From an uncultured virus (IMG/VR IMGVR_UViG_2636415832_000002) (taxonomy: Duplodnaviria > Heunggongvirae > Uroviricota > Caudoviricetes), in IMG/VR virus record IMGVR_UViG_2636415832_000002: a stretch of 64,000 nucleotides of DNA. The stretch is one strand, 5' to 3'. A program made the position numbers and the translations under genes. The number at the start of each line of letters is the position of its first letter. Within the stretch, counting starts at the first letter, position 1. Positions 245-55,903 of the stretch are shown here, piece by piece. The notes below the pieces were generated by a model, which was given only the letters and a program-made list of their open reading frames with translations, was not told the DNA's origin and made no database searches.

Positions 245-2074
245 TTATTTATATAAATCGTGTAAAAATCCATAACGACTTTCTTTATATTTACTTTTAT
301 ATTTATTATGAGTAAATTCAATCACTTTAGCACCAGCAGACTCATATTCTAAGTCTGGTAAATCTTTTGTATTTTCAATAACTATTATTTGTCCTTTAGA
401 TTGACTGTCAATAAAATATTGGAAAAGGGCTGTTCTCATACTTGTAGGAGCATTATCATTAACTCCCTGATCTAAACCAAGTAGAGGTGTATCTACTACA
501 AAAATGCTAGGCTTATAGACAGCATCTTCTTGCAAATATTGTCTAAAAGTTAAACCTAATACGGTGTTTATAAATGCCCAGTAACCTTTACCATGACTTA
601 CTTCTTTAGCTAAGCCATTTACTTCTAAATCAAAAGTCCCCATATTGAAATGAGCAGTATTCAAATTCTCATAATTGCATTCAGTTAGTATCGAATATGC
701 TATTTTATCTATACGGGAATTAAAATCTACTGGATAATGTTCCTTTGGTTTAAATTTGGGTTTTTCTAAATCCTCGTTTTGCTCCTGCTTTTGTAATTCC
801 GTAATCCAATCCTGTGAAACATTGTGTAGAACTGTTGATTCTTGTTGTAATTGTATATAAGTACGATATTGCTGAATTACATTTCTTAATTTATCTGCTT
901 GAGGAACAAGCTCAATTTCAATCCATTTTTCAATCTCGGCTCTTCGGCTTTCTAAATAGTTAATCTTTTTTTGAAGTTCATTTAAAGTTGAAACGATGTC
1001 ATTTTCGCTTTCTGTTAAACCTTGTAATTGTGCGATGATACGATTCAACTCAGCTCTCGATGCTTCAATAAAGGACTTTCTTTCTGAAGGTTTAATATTT
1101 CCATCACAAAAAGGACATTTATGGTTTGTATCTATAGTGTGTAAATGTACTTCTCCATCTACGATAAAGGTAAGTCTCTTTATATCAGCTGTATATTGGC
1201 TTTTCAGTGATTGAAAGTGCGAATGAGTTACCTTAGTTTCAGCTTCTTTTTCTTTAAAAATTAGTAAAGTACTAAGTAAATCTTTGCTTTCCTCTGTGGC
1301 AGCTACAAGGGTCTGTTCAGTTTCAGAAAGATTATCGATTAACTTTTGCATTTCTTCTTCAATATCTAAATTGCTATATTCAAATAGTGAATTTTGAAGT
1401 TCTTCTCTTTTTGTAGACAATTGAGCAATTCTACCATTTACAAATTGACGAACAGCATCCCTTTTCGCTTTGCTGATTTCATCCTTATCTTGTTCTTCCA
1501 TATTTGGATAATTATCACCTGTGAGAAGATATAGTAAGGATGAAAAAAAGTAAGGATATTGCGTAGGTGATGAAGGCAAAAGTACAGACTTTGGATTTTC
1601 GATATCCTGTTCTCTTAACCAAAAGAGCCTAGTAAGTGTATTCCATTTTAAACGTTGTCTAGCAAAATCTTGATTACTTATTATCATTGGCAGCTCATTA
1701 ATACCAATTAATTTAAGACATAGTTCATTTAAAACAGGGCGCTTATTCCCATTAGTCTTATAATCAACATCATAGTCACCACTCTCAATTGAGTTGATTT
1801 CGGTGACTACGTTTACTATATTTTTCCCAAGCTTTCGAGAAAGATGAATCGGTCCTTCTGAAGTCATAAGGTCAAGACTGACACTATTATATCCTGTTTG
1901 ATTATGTTCAAAAGGTTTATTGATAACCCCCATAGCAAATTGAATACACTTTAATACACAGGTTTTTCCGGAATCTGAAACCCCACAAATAATATTTAAT
2001 CCTTTATTGAATGTTACAGTGGAAGGAGTTTTCCCGGTGCCAGTTGCTGTAACCTTAGTTATATAAAATGTCAT
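245..2074 (-). CDS. SMC/Rad50-like ABC ATPase of an ABC-three-component (Lamassu-like) system
   Basis: Walker A GVSDSGKT, long coiled coils with central CPFC zinc-hook-like motif, Walker B-like IFVVDTP. Confidence 0.8.
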   Translation of the reverse strand: MTFYITKVTATGTGKTPSTVTFNKGLNIICGVSDSGKTCVLKCIQFAMGVINKPFEHNQTGYNSVSLDLMTSEGPIHLSRKLGKNIVNVVTEINSIESGDYDVDYKTNGNKRPVLNELCLKLIGINELPMIISNQDFARQRLKWNTLTRLFWLREQDIENPKSVLLPSSPTQYPYFFSSLLYLLTGDNYPNMEEQDKDEISKAKRDAVRQFVNGRIAQLSTKREELQNSLFEYSNLDIEEEMQKLIDNLSETEQTLVAATEESKDLLSTLLIFKEKEAETKVTHSHFQSLKSQYTADIKRLTFIVDGEVHLHTIDTNHKCPFCDGNIKPSERKSFIEASRAELNRIIAQLQGLTESENDIVSTLNELQKKINYLESRRAEIEKWIEIELVPQADKLRNVIQQYRTYIQLQQESTVLHNVSQDWITELQKQEQNEDLEKPKFKPKEHYPVDFNSRIDKIAYSILTECNYENLNTAHFNMGTFDLEVNGLAKEVSHGKGYWAFINTVLGLTFRQYLQEDAVYKPSIFVVDTPLLGLDQGVNDNAPTSMRTALFQYFIDSQSKGQIIVIENTKDLPDLEYESAGAKVIEFTHNKYKSKYKESRYGFLHDLYK

Positions 2075-2080
2075 TTGGGA

Positions 2081-2533
2081 TTACTCCTTCCATAGTGATT
2101 TAGATGCTGCTTGTCCGAATAAGTTGAGAAGTTCTTTGTCGTTTTTAGAATCCATATATGTGAGGGCTTTCTTGGCATATATTCTATATTCAGTTGCGTA
2201 ATCTGAAGTTAGGGAACTACATAATGTTTGACCACGGTTCGAAATAAAGTATTGAAAGCCGTCTTTTGAGTATGAAACTTTTATCATATTTTCAAGGACT
2301 AGATTCTTTATAGCGCCTTGTGCTAATAATCTCCTGGCGGAAAATTCAGAAAAGCTAAATTCATTATCTCCGTGAAGATTACTGTCCGATAGTCCAATTT
2401 CCTTTGAATAATTTGAAATGAAATCTGCTGTAACAAGGTCATCTAATGTACGGTTTTTATTTTTGGATAAAGATAGGACAAGTAATAACCTCAACGACAT
2501 TTCAAATTCAGTGTTAAAAATTTTATTATTCAT
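2081..2533 (-). CDS. ABC-three-component system middle component
   Basis: 150 aa, FNTEFEMSLRLLLVL...DFISNY...NLHGDN pattern; lies between CTD protein and ABC ATPase. Confidence 0.7.
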   Translation of the reverse strand: MNNKIFNTEFEMSLRLLLVLSLSKNKNRTLDDLVTADFISNYSKEIGLSDSNLHGDNEFSFSEFSARRLLAQGAIKNLVLENMIKVSYSKDGFQYFISNRGQTLCSSLTSDYATEYRIYAKKALTYMDSKNDKELLNLFGQAASKSLWKE

Positions 2534-3527
2534 CTTCGTCTACCCAGCGAACACTACCGTCATTTGCCAATAAGTGACAGGTTCCTTTCTTTTCTTTTGG
2601 TCCTACGAGATTTTGTATGTTGCTTACAATTGATGTAGTGGAGCAATCTACTACTTTTTTCATCACTGTTACTAATCTCTTGTAACCATTATCATAGTCA
2701 TCCCATAGAGTGTCTTTAATATAATCGAACGTTTCGGATTTCCACTTTTCTGCATGTACTTCTCCTTTTTCAAAAGACTCACGAAGAAAACGATCAATGC
2801 GTACAGCACTATAATAGTTGATTCGTTGGTCAGAGAAATTCCTCTTATATTTTTGTGGAAGAGAATCCAAATCGGATTTTGTGAGTTCCTTACAATTCAC
2901 GGCATCTGCATAGGCAGCTAGAAGTTCACTGACGTAAATTTCTTCTTCTGGAGCAATATCTTGTGGTGGCTCTAGTTCTTTCGGAATAGAAATCTCTATG
3001 TTTCCAATATGTAATTTTCCGTCCGATTCATCGTAGTAGATAGTTTGTACAGGAAAGAATGTTAATTTTTGAGTGGGACTCAAGTTATTAGAAACTATAG
3101 CACTAGATGTTTCTCTACCCTCATAAATATCATTTAAAATTTGAAGAAATAAATCAGCGCAAGCATAACCTAAATTATCAATGGAGTTGAAATCTGGAAT
3201 CATTGTTTTGATTTCATCTTCAATTGCCATTTGATTATGCCCATTAAATCCGTTTATATATTTTGCAAATTTATCCGTATCTTTACGGCTTATAACTTTA
3301 CGTACCTTCTTCTGATTTAAAGGGTTTGTTCCTTTAAATAGCCTGTTCAACGAATCTGGAACAAGGGTGCTAAAAGGGTTATATTTATCGTTTTCAGATA
3401 GCATTATTTCTTCAGGGGATTGTGGATTTCTCATAATATTGTCGAAAAGTGACAGAAAAAATTCATGTGACTTATATGAATTGTCACTATGTTTAAATAG
3501 TATATTCGCAAATTCACTAAAGAGCAT
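2526..3527 (-). CDS. ABC-three-component system effector/CTD protein with HTH-like N-terminal domain
   Basis: First gene of the operon; C-terminal helical domain (EEEIYVSELLAAY...QRINYYSA...KKGTCHLLANDG.VRWV) resembles ABC-3C CTDs; overlaps the next gene. Confidence 0.65.
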   Translation of the reverse strand: MLFSEFANILFKHSDNSYKSHEFFLSLFDNIMRNPQSPEEIMLSENDKYNPFSTLVPDSLNRLFKGTNPLNQKKVRKVISRKDTDKFAKYINGFNGHNQMAIEDEIKTMIPDFNSIDNLGYACADLFLQILNDIYEGRETSSAIVSNNLSPTQKLTFFPVQTIYYDESDGKLHIGNIEISIPKELEPPQDIAPEEEIYVSELLAAYADAVNCKELTKSDLDSLPQKYKRNFSDQRINYYSAVRIDRFLRESFEKGEVHAEKWKSETFDYIKDTLWDDYDNGYKRLVTVMKKVVDCSTTSIVSNIQNLVGPKEKKGTCHLLANDGSVRWVDEDE

Positions 3528-3549
3528 AATCTGTCACCTCTAACCATGT

Positions 3550-3585
3550 TTCCGAATCGTTCCAAACTTTTCCGAGTCCTTCCGA
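3550..3585. repeat. Four TTCCRA hexamers at exact 10-bp spacing
   Basis: TTCCGA 3550, TTCCAA 3560, TTCCGA 3570, TTCCGA 3580. Confidence 0.8.
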
Positions 3586-3760
3586 AATGGAAGGATTTTT
3601 TTTTATACAATTTTTTTAGATATTGAGTGATATGAAAAATTCAAGAGTAAATTAGTCTATTTAAATTATATCACGTAAATTGACACTTAACTAGAAGTGA
3701 AAATTTATGAATGCAGAGATTTTAATAGCGTTCAATGAGTTTTTCTTTTAAAAAATATCA

Positions 3761-3952
3761 AATGCCTGATTTGCAATAAGGGCAAAGGATACATATTGCT
3801 ACGTTTCAGTCCGTTTAGGATTGTTATGCGTTGCAATAGAAGTACCTTACCTTGTTGCGCTCATTTTCAGGACAAAGGGTCTGTGTACTTCGAGGCACAG
3901 ACCTATTTTTGTATCCTTTGCCGCCAATGCAGTCCGGCGGAAAGGATGCAAA
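3761..3952 (+). promoter_or_regulatory. Structured 5' leader with alternative pairings over the RBS of the sigma-like gene
   Basis: GGCAAAGGATACA (3781-3793) is the exact reverse complement of TGTATCCTTTGCC (3910-3922), which can alternatively pair with GGCGGAAAGGATGCAAAA (3936-3953) containing the RBS. Confidence 0.6.
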
Positions 3953-4486
3953 ATGAAAATTAGAATTATGTACGACAACAAACCTACCTATTTGGAGGTA
4001 CCAGACGAGGACTTTACCTTAATGATTGATGCAGATTACGAGGACAGGCTATCCTGTGCCGAAGATAAGGAAACGGTAACTCGCCGTTCGCCACAGGAGA
4101 TTATGGACGAGCGTTTTAACAAGCCCGACTACAATAACTGGCACAAGTTTGATAGAAACAGAGGGATGCCGAAAAAACCATTCCGTAAGGACAACGAATC
4201 AGAGGATGCAACGGATCATATGGACTATCTTCCAGATAACACCCATGAAGTGGCTCGGAATAAAAAGGAAGATTATGAATATTACTGTGAGATTATTCGT
4301 TCTATTCTTAAGCCGAAACATTCAGAACCTTTTATTGCTGTATATCTTGATGGCATGACAATGACCGAGTATGCAGAGCGTGAAGGTGTCAGTAAAAGTG
4401 CCATATCACATCGCTTGGCTACCGCTAAGAAGAATTTAAAAAAAGTTTTTCCTGAATCCTCAACTTTCCCCTCTTGCCACGGCTAA
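3953..4486 (+). CDS. Sigma-70 region-4-like DNA-binding regulator (phage sigma-like factor)
   Basis: C-terminal DGMTMTEYAEREGVSKSAISHRLATAKKNLKK; ATG 3953 preceded by AAAGGA, preferred over TTG 3821. Confidence 0.8.
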   Translation: MKIRIMYDNKPTYLEVPDEDFTLMIDADYEDRLSCAEDKETVTRRSPQEIMDERFNKPDYNNWHKFDRNRGMPKKPFRKDNESEDATDHMDYLPDNTHEVARNKKEDYEYYCEIIRSILKPKHSEPFIAVYLDGMTMTEYAEREGVSKSAISHRLATAKKNLKKVFPESSTFPSCHG

Positions 4487-4497
4487 TAGATAGAGGG
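4455..4497 (+). promoter_or_regulatory. Bipartite motif copy 1 (AATCCTCAAC-N16-GGCTAATAGATAGAGGG)
   Basis: Same motif and spacing at 10918 and 43816; upstream of replication operon. Confidence 0.7.
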
Positions 4498-4532
4498 CAG
4501 TACATAAACGCTCTCGGAAAGAGGTGAAGAAC

Positions 4533-4751
4533 ATGAAACACAACTTGAAAATCAGTGTTTCAAAAACTCCACAGTCTGGCGGGATTGTAACTTGCCGTAA
4601 TGTCACCATAAGGGAGCGCTTCCTTCGTTTCTTACTTGGTGATAAGCAGAAGCTGACTATTCTTGTTCCGGGTGACACCGTACAGGAACTCGCCATCAGT
4701 GAGATTAAGGAGGGGGGATTAAACCATGAGCAAAATCAAACTACTTCTTGA
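4533..4751 (+). CDS. Conserved phage hypothetical protein
   Basis: ORF with GAGGTG RBS, overlapping next gene. Confidence 0.7.
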   Translation: MKHNLKISVSKTPQSGGIVTCRNVTIRERFLRFLLGDKQKLTILVPGDTVQELAISEIKEGGLNHEQNQTTS

Positions 4752-5049
4752 TGTGGTTTCTGATATGCGCTCTTTGGCAGACAGCATACAAGCGGTTGCT
4801 GATGCAATGGCGGGTAGTGAGCCTGTCGAAGCAAAAGAACCGACCACAACTGTAAAAGAGCCAGAACCAAAGAAAAAGGAAATCACTCTAGAGGAAGTCA
4901 GAGCAAAACTCGCTGAGAAGAGTCAAGCTGGTCTTACTGACCAAGTGAGAGAAATCATCCAAAAATACGGTGGCTCTAAATTAAGCGAAGTTGACCCGAA
5001 ACATTATGCAGATATGTTGAAAGATGCGGAGGTACTAGGTAATGAGTGA
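4726..5049 (+). CDS. Phage protein typically preceding DUF2800
   Basis: C-terminal ITLEEVRAKLAEKSQAG...KYGGSKLSEVDPKHY pattern; strong RBS. Confidence 0.75.
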   Translation: MSKIKLLLDVVSDMRSLADSIQAVADAMAGSEPVEAKEPTTTVKEPEPKKKEITLEEVRAKLAEKSQAGLTDQVREIIQKYGGSKLSEVDPKHYADMLKDAEVLGNE

Positions 5050-17814: not shown

Positions 17815-19275
17815 GGTACTGTCAATATTTTTGTGTAAATGACGATTCACCCGTTCAAGGGAACTCATCACCTGTGTATTCAATTGTACTTGTTCGAAGT
17901 GTTGATTTGAGTGTGTAGGAAAGGGCTAGCCCTTTCCTACACACTCAAATTTCGCGCTGGCGCGTCCCGGTCTAGTTTGCCGGTTCGTGCAGCTGCTCAA
18001 ACATTTCTTCTAGCTTTGCACGGGCCTGATTGAAGCCGATGTGGCAGCGTGTGGCGAAACGTTGATTATAGTCTTCGAACTGCGTCACTAAAAAGCGCTC
18101 CAACGATTCTTCGTTCGGGAACTGTTCCTTGCGCTTTGTATATTTTTTGATTTGCTTATTGAACGACTCGATTAAATTCGTCGAGTAGATGCTTCGCCAA
18201 ATCGCCTTGGGAAAGCCGTAAAACGTCAGTAAATACGGGTTTTCGAGTAAGCCTTGTGCGACTTTTTTATACGATTTGCCCCATTTTTCGCAGAACGTCT
18301 CGAGCGCTTTTTTCGCTGCTTCAGCGTTCTTTGCCTGGTGAATCGTTTTAAAATCCTCGCACACTTCCTTGCGATCTTCTACTCGGACTTTATGCATGAT
18401 ATTGCGTGCCACATGGACAAGGCACACCTGATATTTTGCCTTTGGAAACACATTAAACACAGCGTCTGCCATGCCTTTTAAGCCGTCTGATACGAATAAA
18501 AGTACGTCTTCTACACCACGGTCTTTGAGCTCTTGTAGTAGCTCCTGCCAGTTGTAGGCCGATTCTGTTGGGGCAATCGTATAGCCAAGCACTTCTTTAG
18601 AGCCGTCTTCACGAATACCAACTGCAATATAGACGGCCTCTTTTGACACCGTATCACGACGCACGGCAATATACGTCGCGTCTAAATACACGCATACGTA
18701 ACGATTGTGCAAAGGACGGTTATTAAAGGCTTCTACCGTTTCTGAAACAGCCTTTGTCATATTCGAAATCGTTTGCGGCGTATAGTGATGCCCATACATT
18801 TTCTCAATTAATTGCGCAATTTCCGCCATCGTAATGCCTTTTTTGAACAAGTGAATGACCGTTTCTTCCAGCGTATCGTTCGAGCGCTTATATGGTACCA
18901 CTGTCTGTTGTTTAAACTCACCGTTGCGATCCCGCGGGATTTGAAGCGTTAAATCGCCGTACTCCGTGTGAAGTGTACGCGAATAAGACCCATTGCGAGA
19001 ATTGCCTGAGTTGAACCCGATACGATCGTATTTTTCGTAATCCAAAAATTCCGTCAGCTCTGTCGCCAGTAGCGAGTTGATCGCCATTTCCAAGTGCGAA
19101 CGAAAAACCTCGGTAATATCTTGTTTTTTGACTAGTGCATCGACAATTTCTGTTGTAAACTGATTCATAGGGAAGACCTCTTTTCTAGGATTGGTTGTGG
19201 TGACTTAATTCTACCAAGAAAGGGTCTTCCTTTTTCTATGGAATTTTCTATTTACACAAAATATTTTATACTCTC
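17815..19275 (-). mobile_element. IS256-family element copy 1 (1461 bp)
   Basis: Imperfect terminal IRs GGTACTGTCAATATTTTTGTGTAAAT / ATTTACACAAAATATTTTATACTCTC; same length and transposase as 53351-54811. Confidence 0.93.
17972..19168 (-). CDS. IS256-family transposase
   Basis: RNGSY.R, PRDRNGEF, YLDATY, SDGLKG, QVCLVH, STNLIESFN. Confidence 0.95.
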   Translation of the reverse strand: MNQFTTEIVDALVKKQDITEVFRSHLEMAINSLLATELTEFLDYEKYDRIGFNSGNSRNGSYSRTLHTEYGDLTLQIPRDRNGEFKQQTVVPYKRSNDTLEETVIHLFKKGITMAEIAQLIEKMYGHHYTPQTISNMTKAVSETVEAFNNRPLHNRYVCVYLDATYIAVRRDTVSKEAVYIAVGIREDGSKEVLGYTIAPTESAYNWQELLQELKDRGVEDVLLFVSDGLKGMADAVFNVFPKAKYQVCLVHVARNIMHKVRVEDRKEVCEDFKTIHQAKNAEAAKKALETFCEKWGKSYKKVAQGLLENPYLLTFYGFPKAIWRSIYSTNLIESFNKQIKKYTKRKEQFPNEESLERFLVTQFEDYNQRFATRCHIGFNQARAKLEEMFEQLHEPAN

Positions 19276-52726: not shown

Positions 52727-53350
52727 GATTAAAGTAATTCGTTAGAAAAGCGATAAAAGATTCTTGGAGATCCGTCTTTTTTAATTTCAATTCGATCTAC
52801 TAGACGGTGTAACATTTCAGTTGTTAACTCATTGAATTGAAGGAAATAACTTAGCTCTTTTTTAATTTTAGCTATATCAGTTGCTGTTGTATCCTTTGAT
52901 ACTGAATTTGATTTTTCTAGCTCGTATTTTTCAGTAACTAAGATATTTAATTTATTATCGATATCATCAATAGTTAAGCGGTAGTCTTCTATTTTTATAC
53001 TTGATTGAGCTAGAAGTTTTGTAAGTCTTACTTTGTCATTATTTAAATCTGCAATGTCTTTTTCAATCTTAACCAAACGTTTTTTTGTACTATTGGTTAC
53101 TTTATTAGCTTTCTTTGCGATAAAACCCATTACATCATCCAAGTTTAATTTAGCTGTTATGGATCTAATATCTTCCAGTATTATTTCAGCAAGTTGCTTT
53201 TCCTTAATAAAATGTTCTGAACATGCTTTGATTCCATGTTTATTATAATTACCACATACATAGCCTTTTCGATTCTTTTTAAAGTGCAAACCTCTACCAC
53301 AATCAGCACAGAAAGCTGTATTTGTGAATAAATGAATCTCCTGTTGGGGT

Positions 53351-54811
53351 GGTACTGTCAATATTTTTGTGTAAATGACGATTCACCCGTTCAAGGGAAC
53401 TCATCACCTGTGTATTCAATTGTACTTGTTCGAAGTGTTGATTTGAGTGTGTAGGAAAGGGCTAGCCCTTTCCTACACACTCAAATTTCGCGCTGGCGCG
53501 TCCCGGTCTAGTTTGCCGGTTCGTGCAGCTGCTCAAACATTTCTTCTAGCTTTGCACGGGCCTGATTGAAGCCGATGTGGCAGCGTGTGGCGAAACGTTG
53601 ATTATAGTCTTCGAACTGCGTCACTAAAAAGCGCTCCAACGATTCTTCGTTCGGGAACTGTTCCTTGCGCTTTGTATATTTTTTGATTTGCTTATTGAAC
53701 GACTCGATTAAATTCGTCGAGTAGATGCTTCGCCAAATCGCCTTGGGAAAGCCGTAAAACGTCAGTAAATACGGGTTTTCGAGTAAGCCTTGTGCGACTT
53801 TTTTATACGATTTGCCCCATTTTTCGCAGAACGTCTCGAGCGCTTTTTTCGCTGCTTCAGCGTTCTTTGCCTGGTGAATCGTTTTAAAATCCTCGCACAC
53901 TTCCTTGCGATCTTCTACTCGGACTTTATGCATGATATTGCGTGCCACATGGACAAGGCACACCTGATATTTTGCCTTTGGAAACACATTAAACACAGCG
54001 TCTGCCATGCCTTTTAAGCCGTCTGATACGAATAAAAGTACGTCTTCTACACCACGGTCTTTGAGCTCTTGTAGTAGCTCCTGCCAGTTGTAGGCCGATT
54101 CTGTTGGGGCAATCGTATAGCCAAGCACTTCTTTAGAGCCGTCTTCACGAATACCAACTGCAATATAGACGGCCTCTTTTGACACCGTATCACGACGCAC
54201 GGCAATATACGTCGCGTCTAAATACACGCATACGTAACGATTGTGCAAAGGACGGTTATTAAAGGCTTCTACCGTTTCTGAAACAGCCTTTGTCATATTC
54301 GAAATCGTTTGCGGCGTATAGTGATGCCCATACATTTTCTCAATTAATTGCGCAATTTCCGCCATCGTAATGCCTTTTTTGAACAAGTGAATGACCGTTT
54401 CTTCCAGCGTATCGTTCGAGCGCTTATATGGTACCACTGTCTGTTGTTTAAACTCACCGTTGCGATCCCGCGGGATTTGAAGCGTTAAATCGCCGTACTC
54501 CGTGTGAAGTGTACGCGAATAAGACCCATTGCGAGAATTGCCTGAGTTGAACCCGATACGATCGTATTTTTCGTAATCCAAAAATTCCGTCAGCTCTGTC
54601 GCCAGTAGCGAGTTGATCGCCATTTCCAAGTGCGAACGAAAAACCTCGGTAATATCTTGTTTTTTGACTAGTGCATCGACAATTTCTGTTGTAAACTGAT
54701 TCATAGGGAAGACCTCTTTTCTAGGATTGGTTGTGGTGACTTAATTCTACCAAGAAAGGGTCTTCCTTTTTCTATGGAATTTTCTATTTACACAAAATAT
54801 TTTATACTCTC
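53351..54811 (-). mobile_element. IS256-family element copy 2 (1461 bp) with 8-bp TSD GTTGGGGT
   Basis: TSD at 53343-53350 and 54812-54819; same IRs as copy 1. Confidence 0.95.
53508..54704 (-). CDS. IS256-family transposase
   Basis: Protein identical to 17972-19168. Confidence 0.95.
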   Translation of the reverse strand: MNQFTTEIVDALVKKQDITEVFRSHLEMAINSLLATELTEFLDYEKYDRIGFNSGNSRNGSYSRTLHTEYGDLTLQIPRDRNGEFKQQTVVPYKRSNDTLEETVIHLFKKGITMAEIAQLIEKMYGHHYTPQTISNMTKAVSETVEAFNNRPLHNRYVCVYLDATYIAVRRDTVSKEAVYIAVGIREDGSKEVLGYTIAPTESAYNWQELLQELKDRGVEDVLLFVSDGLKGMADAVFNVFPKAKYQVCLVHVARNIMHKVRVEDRKEVCEDFKTIHQAKNAEAAKKALETFCEKWGKSYKKVAQGLLENPYLLTFYGFPKAIWRSIYSTNLIESFNKQIKKYTKRKEQFPNEESLERFLVTQFEDYNQRFATRCHIGFNQARAKLEEMFEQLHEPAN

Positions 54812-55753
54812 GTTGGGGTCTGATGCGTTGTCTAGAAATAATCATATCTTGAACAGTGTTGAATGTATCTAGAGAAATAATAGCTTCGTGAACATTTTCT
54901 ACTATTACAAATTCAGACACAGGAAGTAATAATCTTGAATCAGTGATAGTAGGCTTAGTATCACGACATTGTACAAGCGCCCCAGTATAGTGAGGGTTCA
55001 TTAGAATTTTCTTAATCGTTGAACCATGCCACTTATCTCCAGCATTAGCCTTTCCACTTATCTGTGAAGGAGTTGGGATTCCTTCGTTATATAAGCCACG
55101 GGCTATACCATCAAACCCTTTACCTTCAATATATTCTTGAAAAATCTTACGAACAATATCAGGAGTATAATCATCTCTAATAAATATCTTTTTATTTTCA
55201 AGATAATAACCGTAGGGTGGTACGGAACCATTAAATTCCCCTTCTTTTGCTTTTGTTCGGAATGTATGTTTAATCCGATTGCTTGTTTTTTGTGATTCTT
55301 GTTCGTAAATCCATGCATACAATCCAAATTTATCTTGGTCTCCATTTAAAGTATCAATTGCCCCATCAAGTGTTTTAAGATGGATTTTATGTTTATTTAA
55401 GATTTCCTTTAATTGATAGGCAAGGGGTACATTTCTTGCTAAACGTGATAATTCTTTTGATAGAATTAAATCGAATTTATTTTCTTTTGCGTCATTGATT
55501 AATTGATTAAGTCCTTTACGGTTACTGTGTGTACCCGATTCAATTTCTTGATAAAAGTCATAAATTTCCCATCCATTCTCCGCGCATACCTGTGTGAATA
55601 AATTTCTTTGATTTTCAAGGGATGACTTTTGTTCTTCTTTATGAGTTGATACACGAACTAGAATAGCAACTTTTAATGGTCTGTTTGCTAAAGTACTATC
55701 AAGTTCTTGCTGTCCAATTTCTTTATATGAATTACTACTTGCCAATGCTAATC

Positions 55754-55903
55754 TCATGATTGACCACTTCCTTCATCATGAGATGTAGTGGTGTTATCTT
55801 TAGCATATAAGCTTTTTAATAGTTGGTCAATTTGGTTATTGATTAGATCAGTTATGATTTTTTCTAATGTTGTTTCACTTTTATAAACACGTTCAATATT
55901 CAT
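55754..55903 (-). CDS. 49-aa protein coupled to the recombinase start
   Basis: GGAGG RBS; MNIERVYKSETTLEKIITDLINNQIDQLLKSLYAKDNTTTSHDEGSGQS*; ATGA overlap with recombinase. Confidence 0.6.
   Translation of the reverse strand: MNIERVYKSETTLEKIITDLINNQIDQLLKSLYAKDNTTTSHDEGSGQS

Follow-up and report, generated by a model that had tools for sequence, protein, structure and literature searches.

Leader and downstream gene

The window (the entire 64,000-nucleotide stretch of viral DNA that was analysed) harbours a co-oriented prophage array of about 48 kb, which runs from early to late genes. Its first gene (3953..4486, plus strand, to which all coordinates given here refer) encodes a 177-aa protein with a C-terminal HTH resembling sigma-70 region 4. 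The initial annotation had taken this product for a sigma-like master regulator. The likeness to sigma factors was retained in weak form, since the match to Pfam Sigma70_r4_2 lies below the cut-off (E 4e-05, 23.6 bits vs. 25.7 bits), as does that to TIGR02937 (34.1 bits vs. 42.9 bits). A region-2 match is absent, and the protein thus falls outside the sigma-70 family as defined by regions 2 and 4 above their cut-offs. For a master role no support was found, the best PHROG (phrog_11138, E 1e-38) being without known function.

The leader of this gene lies between divergent genes, where two modules meet. Leaders of relatives can be aligned from an A-run with a TATC box onwards (AAAAAATATCAAA, 3750..3762), while further upstream at least three unrelated sequence types are found. 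This box, with which the block shared by these leaders opens, may represent a −10-like element or else flank the RNA on its 5′ side. An inserted ABC-3C cassette supplies the window's sequence before about 3750, and the native promoter context may therefore be altered. A scan of 3300-4600 gave no sigma-70-type promoter; a candidate −10 element (AAATAT, 3753-3758) and a TTGACA (3681-3686) were read by eye only. The ATG occupies 3953-3955, and 3955, where the initial annotation had let its feature end, is its last base.

Folding of the leader (3761-3975, 215 nt) yielded an MFE of −84.7 kcal/mol, compared to −52.1 ± 4.95 kcal/mol for dinucleotide shuffles (n = 200). The corresponding z value is −6.58, and none of the 200 shuffles was as stable. 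The leader is a conserved RNA element, and a chance feature is excluded.

Mutually exclusive pairings within the leader

The MFE fold, designated state A, contains a 5′ domain (3763..3874) that is also represented in a model alignment of 75 rows. This domain is built from the helices P1 (3765-3769/3867-3871, plus 3763-3764/3873-3874), P2 (3772-3781/3850-3859), P3 (3785-3788/3845-3848 and 3790-3792/3842-3844) and P4 (3794-3799/3833-3838, with tip helices 3801-3804/3828-3831 and 3807-3812/3818-3823). Its junctions carry the conserved nucleotides GGAT.CAT and GTACC and a U-rich J2/1. P3 is the pairing of segment a (GGCAAAGGATACA, 3781..3793) with segment b (GAAGTACCTT, 3839..3848). Further downstream a terminator scan detected the intrinsic-terminator-like hairpin T (3877-3886/3895-3904, followed by a T-run at 3906-3910), whose upper stem and loop include segment c (GTACTTC, 3885-3891).

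The third part of state A is a sequestrator hairpin formed by the anti-Shine-Dalgarno (anti-SD) strand d (TGTATCCTTTGCC, 3910..3922) and strand e. TTTTGTATCCTTT (3907-3919) is paired with AAAGGATGCAAAA (3941-3953) over 13 nt at 92%, and CCGCC (3921-3925) with GGCGG (3936-3940) extends this helix to 18 bp (−27.7 kcal/mol). It covers the SD sequence AAAGGA (3941-3946) as far as the A of the ATG, which confirms the burial of the ribosome-binding site that had been proposed for 3907-3925 and 3936-3953.

Strand d is at the same time the perfect 13-nt complement of a (3781-3793 vs. 3910-3922), the anti-anti-SD strand, again as annotated initially. The complementarity reaches 22 nt at 82% (3772-3793/3910-3931), and the 13-mer matches the window without mismatch at just two sites, one on each strand. 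In the alternative state B, a is paired with d, and b with c through GAAGTAC. All pairings listed in the initial annotation are indeed present in the sequence at its coordinates. They include the hairpins between the two helices at 3794-3803/3829-3838 and at 3878-3885/3896-3903 (the latter 100% paired), and a third pairing, GCAATAAGG/CCTTGTTGC plus CCTGA/TCAGG, that belongs to the MFE fold. The pairings a:b and b:c were absent from that annotation; both covary, and they complete a four-strand exchange between the sets a:b plus d:e and a:d plus b:c. The duplex tables contain the b:c haplotypes GAAGTAC/GTACTTC, GAGATAC/GTATCTC and TCGGTAC/GTATCGA. A further one, GAAGATG/CATCTTC, was read by eye only.

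Covariation and duplex energies

Counts for state A were taken from the 75-row model alignment, which was fitted to the state A structure. In this alignment 88.2% of the cells are paired, as against 39.6-44.1% when the partners are slid. Both sides have changed in 59 of 66 pairs, and none of 500 shuffles reached any of the five measures. For the single helices of the fitted alignment, paired cells and pairs with changes on both sides amount to 95.1% and 3/5 for P1, 91.8% and 8/10 for P2, 89.2% and 5/7 for P3, and 86.9% and 6/6 for P4 (22/28 pairs for P1-P4 together). The values are 94.5% and 10/10 for hairpin T, and 79.4% and 14/14 for the main helix of d:e.

The pairings of state B had been left out of the covariance model. 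They are formed in 79.8% of the cells vs. 32.9-60.3% with slid partners. The a:d helix (12 pairs) is 82.5% paired with changes on both sides at 9 of the 12 pairs; a 13th pair, counted apart, is 77.8% paired and has no both-side change. No shuffle out of 500 equalled state B in paired percentage, in double-change cells or in covariation score, and two other measures were reached by 11 and 16 of them.

RNAalifold returned no structure for 27 diverse leaders aligned with plain MAFFT; the alignment was out of register, and covariance-model alignments were used instead. A first model (R1), built from 14 near-identical leaders, was also discarded. It aligned distant lineages badly, for which reason counts on alignment A6 are weaker than those on A8, and it produced partial minus-strand matches, which arose because the 5′ domain is palindromic. 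A covariance model R2 is available for the element, as are the seed alignments A7 and A8.

As an alignment-free test, the energies of cognate and non-cognate duplexes were compared for 18 lineage representatives. The cognate a:d duplex was better in all 18 lineages (−22.0 vs. −14.4 kcal/mol), followed by d:e (−17.7 vs. −13.3 kcal/mol, 13/18) and a:b (−12.3 vs. −8.5 kcal/mol, 13/18), and by b:c in 12 of 18 (−8.6 vs. −5.7 kcal/mol; 16/18 with wider windows). Four of the six control duplexes (a:e, a:c, b:d, c:e) were not significant, b:e was borderline (p 0.084) and c:d nominally significant (p 0.022), where all p-values of this test are too small as the 18 lineages are phylogenetically non-independent. 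Thus, a:d is the best-supported helix. The covariation that had been expected across leaders of related genes was found for d:e and a:d, and the proposed sequestrator/anti-sequestrator architecture gains support from distant relatives, in which both exclusive helices are kept with compensatory changes. The proposal that the leader acts as the lysis-lysogeny switch goes beyond this support.

Inverted repeats may also belong to the DNA, as an operator array, a recombination site or an origin that merely resembles RNA helices. The divergent intergenic place at a module boundary, with upstream sequences that differ between relatives, would suit such an element. Against it, G-U pairs are frequent and strand-specific, often alternating with A-U or G-C (UG 38/UA 31; GU 40/GC 15/AU 12), the minus strand gives much lower covariance-model scores, and the tips of the hairpins vary in length while their stems covary. 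We consider a DNA-level element very improbable. The many G-U pairs that alternate with A-U or G-C fit an RNA read from the plus strand.

Distribution of the element

With matches counted at E 1e-4, model R2 placed the element on the plus strand, with its end at the start codon, in 71 of 83 non-redundant loci that had been collected by way of the protein, and in three further loci; one spurious minus-strand match was obtained as well. Among the 12 of 83 protein-first sources that were missed, L032, L034 and L038 have an unrelated leader, and the L030 and L042 groups (one representative each) are recognisable variants in the duplex tables. Another missed source, L112, was grouped with L110 by leader identity. 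Match length differs among lineages (182-214 nt), and the hairpin tips contain indels; on these grounds a conserved leader peptide was set aside.

An RNA-first search, for which 151 genomes of the phylum were sampled, revealed seven places in six of them, the own genome included. At all six places outside the own genome, a protein of 163-219 aa with a region-4-like C-terminal HTH is encoded directly downstream, and four different N-terminal types occur among these proteins. Pfam reports a sigma-70 region-4 domain in four of the five that were scanned. Only tblastn matched the protein of L131 (81% identity). In the case of L136, Pfam gives only a sub-cut-off DUF6362, and the protein was likened to L139 by sequence inspection alone. 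An association with metabolism or transport genes was not found: every downstream gene encodes a small sigma-70 region-4-like HTH protein. The loci belong to Bacillaceae, Clostridia, Lachnospiraceae, Negativicutes and Erysipelotrichaceae, together with an Oscillospiraceae phage filed under Ca. Heliusvirales. The element is a conserved, covarying plus-strand structure with strict placement in front of this gene class.

The Rfam scan that had been suggested along with the initial annotation returned no family. Rfam 15 at gathering score gave no match in the whole 64-kb window. At E values up to 10, four matches to eukaryotic snoRNA, lncRNA or miRNA families were obtained for 3000-5000, far below gathering and none inside the leader; that of snoR64a (3693-3765, E 5.2) touches only its 5′ flank. 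The element was not found in the literature on prophage noncoding RNAs and sigma factors, on Heliusvirales or on riboswitch-controlled lysis-lysogeny, and the parts of PMC5737381, PMC11283538 and PMC11109978 covered here hold no mention of it. The leader looks like an RNA switch that has not been catalogued before.

Terminator-like hairpin and transcripts

The terminator-like character noted initially for the region after the second hairpin was confirmed: the scan calls a G+C-rich hairpin (3877-3904) followed by the U-run ATTTTTGTAT, as is typical for an intrinsic terminator. Of the 18 lineage representatives, 12 possess a stable hairpin that is followed by a U-run. Transcription termination cannot be the universal output, because the other 6 of the 18 lineages are without a clear terminator.

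The position of the element at the very start of a long co-oriented array, with a terminator-like hairpin directly behind it, is also what would be seen with an RNA for processive antitermination, such as HK022 put or EAR. In that case the 5′ domain would bind RNA polymerase and bring about read-through of T and of later terminators within the 48-kb array. This leaves the covarying SD sequestrator and the a:d swap unexplained, it is at odds with the lineages that have no terminator, and no Rfam family is matched in sequence or structure. We therefore regard it as improbable.

An RNA of about 150 nt would result from termination at T. Such a short transcript, or one processed from the leader, might target the complementary strands in trans, in its own phage or in one that enters the cell, like the immunity RNAs of P4 (CI) or P1 (c4), and d does have complementary partners on either side, as in the seqA/seqB/seqC arrangement of P4. 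Nevertheless, C4 antisense RNA and all other Rfam families were unmatched, and no trans-acting partner was found in the window, where copies of a, d and the P1/P2 strand occur only as weak sites with two mismatches. RNA-library contigs of relatives, which may be DNA, cover the entire leader, extend 47-128 nt further upstream and continue through T into the gene; they are assembled contigs, from which RNA starts, ends, strand and levels are not readable. Their reach beyond the 5′ end of the leader does not contradict the proposed switch. An immunity-type RNA appears marginally less probable still than an antitermination RNA.

A four-strand model of translational control

Taken together, a cis-acting leader of about 190 nt (~3760-3955, plus strand) probably gates the first gene of the ~48-kb array by means of two folds. 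In state A (OFF), the 5′ domain with P1-P4 would clamp a against b through P3, hairpin T would form with its U-run, and d would pair with e and thereby bury the Shine-Dalgarno sequence and the start codon. In state B (ON), a would pair with d in a long-range helix of 13-19 bp stacked on P4, b would pair with c within the loop and upper stem of T, and the ribosome-binding site would stay free. Any stabiliser of the 5′ domain would thus make a unavailable and turn the gene off. We infer that the RNA toggles between these states, that the decision is made co-transcriptionally and that it is set by a factor binding to the 5′ domain.

The summed energies of the switching helices are similar (−30.6 vs. 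−35.8 kcal/mol) and correlated across lineages (Spearman 0.71), a correlation that may derive in part from G+C content. For the own leader the prediction depends on the 3′ end. With an end at 3925 the two folds are 1.4 kcal/mol apart, at 3935 the a:d fold is the MFE structure, and from 3945 on state A wins. The full-length prediction favours state A over the nested a:d fold by 12-14 kcal/mol. Should P1 and P2 stay in place, a:d forms a pseudoknot, which is beyond scoring by folding programs. Freeing the SD costs 20.6 kcal/mol, to which blocking of a adds only 2.4 kcal/mol. According to these predictions, the own copy would be almost always OFF at equilibrium unless tertiary contacts, kinetics or a factor intervene.

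The strong preference for state A at full length would also be expected if the leader were a static structured 5′ UTR, in which only state A is biological (for mRNA stability, as a processing site or for constitutive damping of translation) and a:d is a by-product of the SD-like nature of a and e; these two strands are 80% alike. Yet the largest cognate advantage, in every lineage compared, is that of a:d, which exceeds the SD-like core and has lineage-specific compensatory changes. In several natural variants the anti-sequestrator fold is itself the MFE structure, the sequestrator fold being so in others, and a by-product would not stay at −17 to −30 kcal/mol in every lineage. A static leader is accordingly improbable in our view, although somewhat less so than an antitermination RNA, and the two-fold switch is preferred.

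Two features of riboswitches are found in this leader, namely a conserved structured sensor domain with covariation (P1-P4 are 87-95% paired in the fitted alignment) and exclusive pairings which overlap the sensor (a:b vs. a:d, and d:e vs. a:d, all conserved). The 5′ domain might be an orphan riboswitch aptamer. With it, a widespread group of temperate phages of Bacillota, the gut Candidatus Heliusvirales among them, would sense a small molecule of the host. Translation of the first early gene, in most lineages transcription too, and thus lytic entry would then be tied to the physiological state of the host. We put this forward as a doubtful extension of the model, though less unlikely than any of the alternatives discussed above.

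If the switch is real, an RNA layer is added to early gene control in a large cross-family group of Bacillota prophages; to our knowledge, no regulatory mechanism has been described for most phages that carry the element. It offers a compact and testable four-strand partner-swap model for translation, plus termination in most lineages, and is a candidate for addition to the curated RNA families. The question of which signal these phages sense can be approached through strands a, b, c, d and e.

Comparison with known systems

The HK022 put and EAR antitermination RNAs are, like the leader, structured RNAs that start a long phage or operon transcript just 5′ of a terminator. They are without an SD-sequestering platform, which the leader possesses, and the Rfam scan shows no similarity to them. 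With the leader attenuators of Bacillota (T-box, ribosomal-protein and amino-acid leaders) the element shares a U-run hairpin in the 5′ leader and an alternative pairing upstream. It differs in that T-box and other leader families are unmatched, that the conserved output is SD sequestration and that the terminator is missing in one third of the lineages (6/18).

The P4 CI RNA (seqA/seqB/seqC) and the c4 antisense RNA of P1/P7 are phage immunity systems which act in trans after processing and, through termination or occlusion of the RBS, control early genes or those for anti-repressors. As in these systems, a phage leader has one strand with complementary sites both upstream and downstream of it. 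In contrast, all strands of the leader are in cis, Rfam C4 is unmatched, and the hosts are Bacillota and not enterobacteria.

The thiM TPP riboswitch of E. coli represents a translational platform with SD, anti-SD and anti-anti-SD strands. Riboswitches of this type and the leader have in common that a single anti-SD strand is contested by the SD and by an upstream strand, the latter being part of a structured 5′ domain whose conservation includes covariation. Unlike them, the leader matches no Rfam riboswitch and would control a putative phage regulator instead of a metabolic or transport gene, and it has a fourth strand pair (b:c) and a built-in terminator-like hairpin. We read the element as a new class of this known kind of device, in which SD, anti-SD and anti-anti-SD strands are combined in one leader.

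Locus and gene neighbourhood

The leader is located within a 425-base intergenic gap between an ABC-3C defence cassette on the minus strand (245-3527; Pfam MC2 and CTD6 with an AAA ATPase), which forms the 5′ side of the gap, and the first gene of a long plus-strand run (ATG at 3953, stop at 4486). The sole family signal of the 177-aa product is a C-terminal helix-turn-helix of the sigma-70 region-4 type, which stays under the curated cut-offs of both Sigma70_r4_2 (23.6 bits, cut-off 25.7) and TIGR02937 (34.1 bits, cut-off 42.9). Its top PHROG is 11138, a family without known function. The following genes encode a 72-aa ORF, a 107-aa ORF, a DUF2800 nuclease, an Enc34-type SSB and DNA polymerase A, and further on in the array an anti-repressor, a primase-helicase, a SNF2-type helicase, methyltransferases, terminase, portal, protease, major head, tape measure and tail proteins as well as serine integrases. 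According to this gene content the window is a siphovirus-like prophage, in which the leader heads about 48 kb of co-oriented genes.

Two minus-strand transposase genes (17972-19168 and 53508-54704) have identical PHROG scores and probably belong to two copies of the same insertion sequence. The one at 53508-54704 sits between serine-integrase fragments (52729-53361 and 54747-55757), so that an integrase gene looks to have been split by the insertion. The flank up to about 3724 is part of an ABC-3C cassette also found in Streptococcus phage Javan630, where ATPase, MC2 and CTD6 genes on the minus strand and the upstream stretch 3600-3724 recur in the same layout; the non-coding part of this region (245-3724) is 76% identical. 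The cassette adjoins the leader, which is conserved from about 3750, and relatives carry other sequence in its place. Just upstream of the first gene of the ABC-3C operon, a plus-strand terminator-like hairpin with nine T (3574-3598), at which no plus-strand gene ends, lies beside an 18-nt direct repeat (TTTCCGAATCGTTCCAAA / TTTCCGAGTCCTTCCGAA; 3549-3586).

Structure of the leader

The region 3761-3975 (215 nt) has a minimum free energy (MFE) of -84.7 kcal/mol, compared to -52.1 ± 4.95 for dinucleotide shuffles (z = -6.58); none of 200 shuffles was as stable. Its MFE fold has three parts, all on the plus strand: a multi-helix 5′ domain (3763-3874), a 10-bp hairpin followed by TTTTT (hairpin T, 3877-3904), and an 18-bp sequestrator hairpin (3907-3953), in which the AAAGGA Shine-Dalgarno (SD) sequence and the A of the ATG are paired. 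All pairings proposed in the initial annotation were found at their positions. Its terminator-like hairpin was also called, with the TTTTT, by a terminator scan, and the perfect 13-nt complementarity of 3781-3793 to 3910-3922 is real and reaches 22 nt at 82%.

Five plus-strand segments take part in the alternative pairings. Strand a (3781-3793) lies in the 5′ domain between helices P2 and P4, strand b (3839-3848) in the same domain 3′ of P4, strand c (3885-3891) in the stem top and loop of hairpin T, strand d (3910-3922) overlaps the end of the U-run, and strand e (3936-3953) comprises SD and start codon. The four pairings are a partner swap: a:b (helix P3) and d:e in state A, with the SD buried, versus a:d and b:c in state B, with the SD free. 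The b:c pairing is an addition to those of the initial annotation. Frequent G-U pairs alternating with A-U or G-C, together with far lower model scores on the minus strand, indicate that the leader is an RNA read from the plus strand.

Conservation and distribution

Relatives of the 177-aa protein were collected as 48 loci from viral contigs and, from one genome per species, the best 80 of 116. Hosts named in the records are Bacillaceae, Clostridium and other Clostridia, Lachnospiraceae, Erysipelotrichaceae and Negativicutes. Even at 28-47% protein identity, the 200 nt preceding the gene could still be aligned. Without coding sequence, the leader matched two Oscillospiraceae phages of a phage database at 72%, one of them filed under Ca. 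Heliusvirales in its record. In a locus of the relatives' set (PV036431.1 15255-15416), a hypothetical-protein CDS is annotated wholly inside an Oscillospiraceae phage leader and runs into the beginning of the next gene; this CDS is probably an annotation artefact.

No known Rfam 15 family is matched by the leader: the whole window gave no match at gathering score, and around the site, with E up to 10, only four irrelevant sub-threshold matches were obtained. Two covariance models were constructed: R1, built from 14 close leaders, holds only helices P1, P2 and P4 and hairpin T, and R2, built from 27 diverse leaders, holds the whole state-A structure. With R2, the element was found on the plus strand, with its 3′ end at the start codon, in 71 of 83 non-redundant sources collected by protein; three further loci also had it, and one minus-strand match was spurious. 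The 12 sources missed comprise three with an unrelated leader (L032, L034, L038) and nine from divergent lineages; leader variants are recognisable in the two representatives of these nine that were examined (L030 and L042), and one missed locus, L112, was placed with L110 by identity only. The proteins of L032, L034 and L038 are close homologues (66-92% identity to that of the window) behind an entirely different leader, in which a separate terminator-like hairpin and GGCGGATTT repeats occur; the leader has thus been replaced in these loci.

Searching by RNA, we found one copy of the element in the genome of the window. R2 matched 7 places in 6 of 151 sampled genomes of the phylum, own genome counted, and R1 matched 5 of the 151. 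All six places outside the own genome have, directly downstream of the element, a gene whose product is 163-219 aa long and ends in a region-4-like helix-turn-helix; the N-terminal architectures of these products are of four kinds. Pfam named Sigma70_r4_2 for four of the five that were scanned (above cut-off for two); the fifth, from L136, had a sub-cut-off DUF6362 match only, and the L131 protein was matched by tblastn alone. The RNA is thus associated with this class of gene and not with one protein family.

At locus L135 (1501-2185) the leader is 97% identical to that of the window, and the region-4 helix-turn-helix proteins of L135 to L139 have four unrelated N-terminal parts. In one genome (G091) a single contig carries the element twice. 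Proteins of L049-L055 are 93-96% identical to that of the window, and their records name different Bacillaceae genera, a Clostridium and a Pelotomaculum MAG, which suggests that this prophage type has a very broad host range or has spread recently, or that MAGs were wrongly binned.

Covariation and duplex energies

In the 75-row R2 alignment, which was fitted to state A and is thus biased in its favour, 88.2% of state-A cells are paired (39.6-44.1% with slid partners), both-side changes occur in 59 of 66 pairs, and none of 500 shuffles matched any measure. State B is absent from the R2 model and hence more fairly tested: 79.8% of cells are paired, compared to 32.9-60.3% with slid partners. Its a:d helix is 82.5% paired over 12 pairs, nine with both-side changes; a 13th pair, counted apart, is 77.8% paired without both-side change. 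For state B, three measures (paired percentage, cells with double change, covariation score) were matched by none of 500 shuffles, and the two pair-type counts by 11 and 16 of 500.

An alignment-free test was chosen against register problems. Clustering of 79 unique leaders at 80% identity gave 18 lineages, and with one representative each the duplex energy of strands from one leader (cognate) was compared to that of strands from different lineages. For a:d the cognate duplex was better in 18/18 lineages (-22.0 versus -14.4 kcal/mol, p = 3.8e-6), for d:e in 13/18 (-17.7 versus -13.3, p = 1e-3), for a:b in 13/18 (-12.3 versus -8.5, p = 2e-3) and for b:c in 12/18 (-8.6 versus -5.7, p = 3e-3), or 16/18 with wider windows; these p-values are too small, the lineages being related, which leaves the ranking of pairs unaffected. 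Four of the six control pairs (a:e, a:c, b:d, c:e) had no cognate effect among the 18 lineages, b:e was borderline (p = 0.084), and c:d, the windows of which overlap, gave p = 0.022. Topping this ranking, the anti-sequestrator a:d, already proposed in the initial annotation, is the best-supported helix. Paired haplotypes of b:c in the computed duplexes include GAAGUAC:GUACUUC, GAGAUAC:GUAUCUC and UCGGUAC:GUAUCGA; GAAGAUG:CAUCUUC, which the segment used for these did not reach, was seen by eye only. In lineages without hairpin T, b:c is a helix of 8-12 bp.

Balance of the two states

Natural variants fall on both sides: the window, L018, L084, L102 and others have state A as their MFE fold, and L039, L093, L099, L106 and L110 have the a:d fold. 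Summed energies of the switching helices are -30.6 (A) versus -35.8 (B) and correlate across lineages (Spearman 0.71), to which G+C content may contribute. Forcing the SD open costs a mean of 9.4 kcal/mol, and 12.4 when strand a is also blocked (p = 9e-4). The full-length leader of the window leans strongly to OFF, its nested a:d fold being 12-14 kcal/mol worse. When the growing transcript was folded, the two folds were 1.4 kcal/mol apart at a 3′ end of 3925, the a:d fold was the MFE at 3935, and state A won from 3945, when e has emerged. Such modelled folds follow the pattern that would be expected of a co-transcriptional decision.

Upstream region and RNA-library contigs

A scan of 3300-4600 gave no sigma-70-type promoter. 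Conservation sets in about 5-10 nt 5′ of P1 with an A-run and TATC box (3750-3759), which could be a -10 element or the 5′ flank of the RNA. Several relatives (e.g. L114, L041, L040, L101) carry lineage-specific G+C-rich perfect palindromes such as AGTGCC-AGA-GGCACT at a fixed position 10-25 nt upstream of this box; the window has none. Each may serve as operator for a repressor of its lineage or form an additional hairpin in the RNA.

In four RNA libraries from three studies, contigs wholly cover leaders of relatives, are continuous with the gene and extend 47-128 nt further upstream; starts are not readable from contigs and DNA carry-over is possible, and the contigs do not contradict transcription of strand a. 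RNA-library contigs of relatives (X15, X16, X2; two studies) break at about 4517-4544, with 11- to 60-fold higher depth downstream than over leader and sigma-like gene, contig depth being a weak measure. The break may reflect strong initiation or processing of transcripts ahead of the 72-aa ORF (4533-4751, phrog_7234).

Proposed mechanism and comparison with known systems

We propose that the leader is a cis-acting switch with an SD / anti-SD / anti-anti-SD logic, whose anti-anti-SD strand lies within a structured sensor domain. The structures, their conservation and covariation, the strand and the gene association are shown by the analysis; that the leader toggles, that the choice is under kinetic control and that an effector exists is inferred. 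If this domain is stabilised, a would be held, d would wait for e, and translation would be off; the terminator would also stay intact in the 12 of 18 lineages that have a hairpin with U-run. If it is opened, a would be released for d and b for c, and with a free as d emerges, a:d would form and the SD would come out unpaired. No metabolic gene association hinting at a ligand was seen among the downstream genes, no trans-acting complement of the leader strands was found within the window, and relatives share no conserved upstream neighbour, their upstream flanks being of several unrelated types. The role as a lysis-lysogeny switch suggested by the initial annotation is hypothetical.

No description of the element was found in the main texts of the openly accessible literature searched. 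The leader would work like a translational riboswitch platform, but it belongs to no curated Rfam family; of the defining features of riboswitches, ligand binding would be hypothetical here and a telling gene association was not seen. In the P4 CI and P1 c4 immunity RNAs one strand is likewise complementary to two sites; in the leader, in contrast, everything lies in cis.
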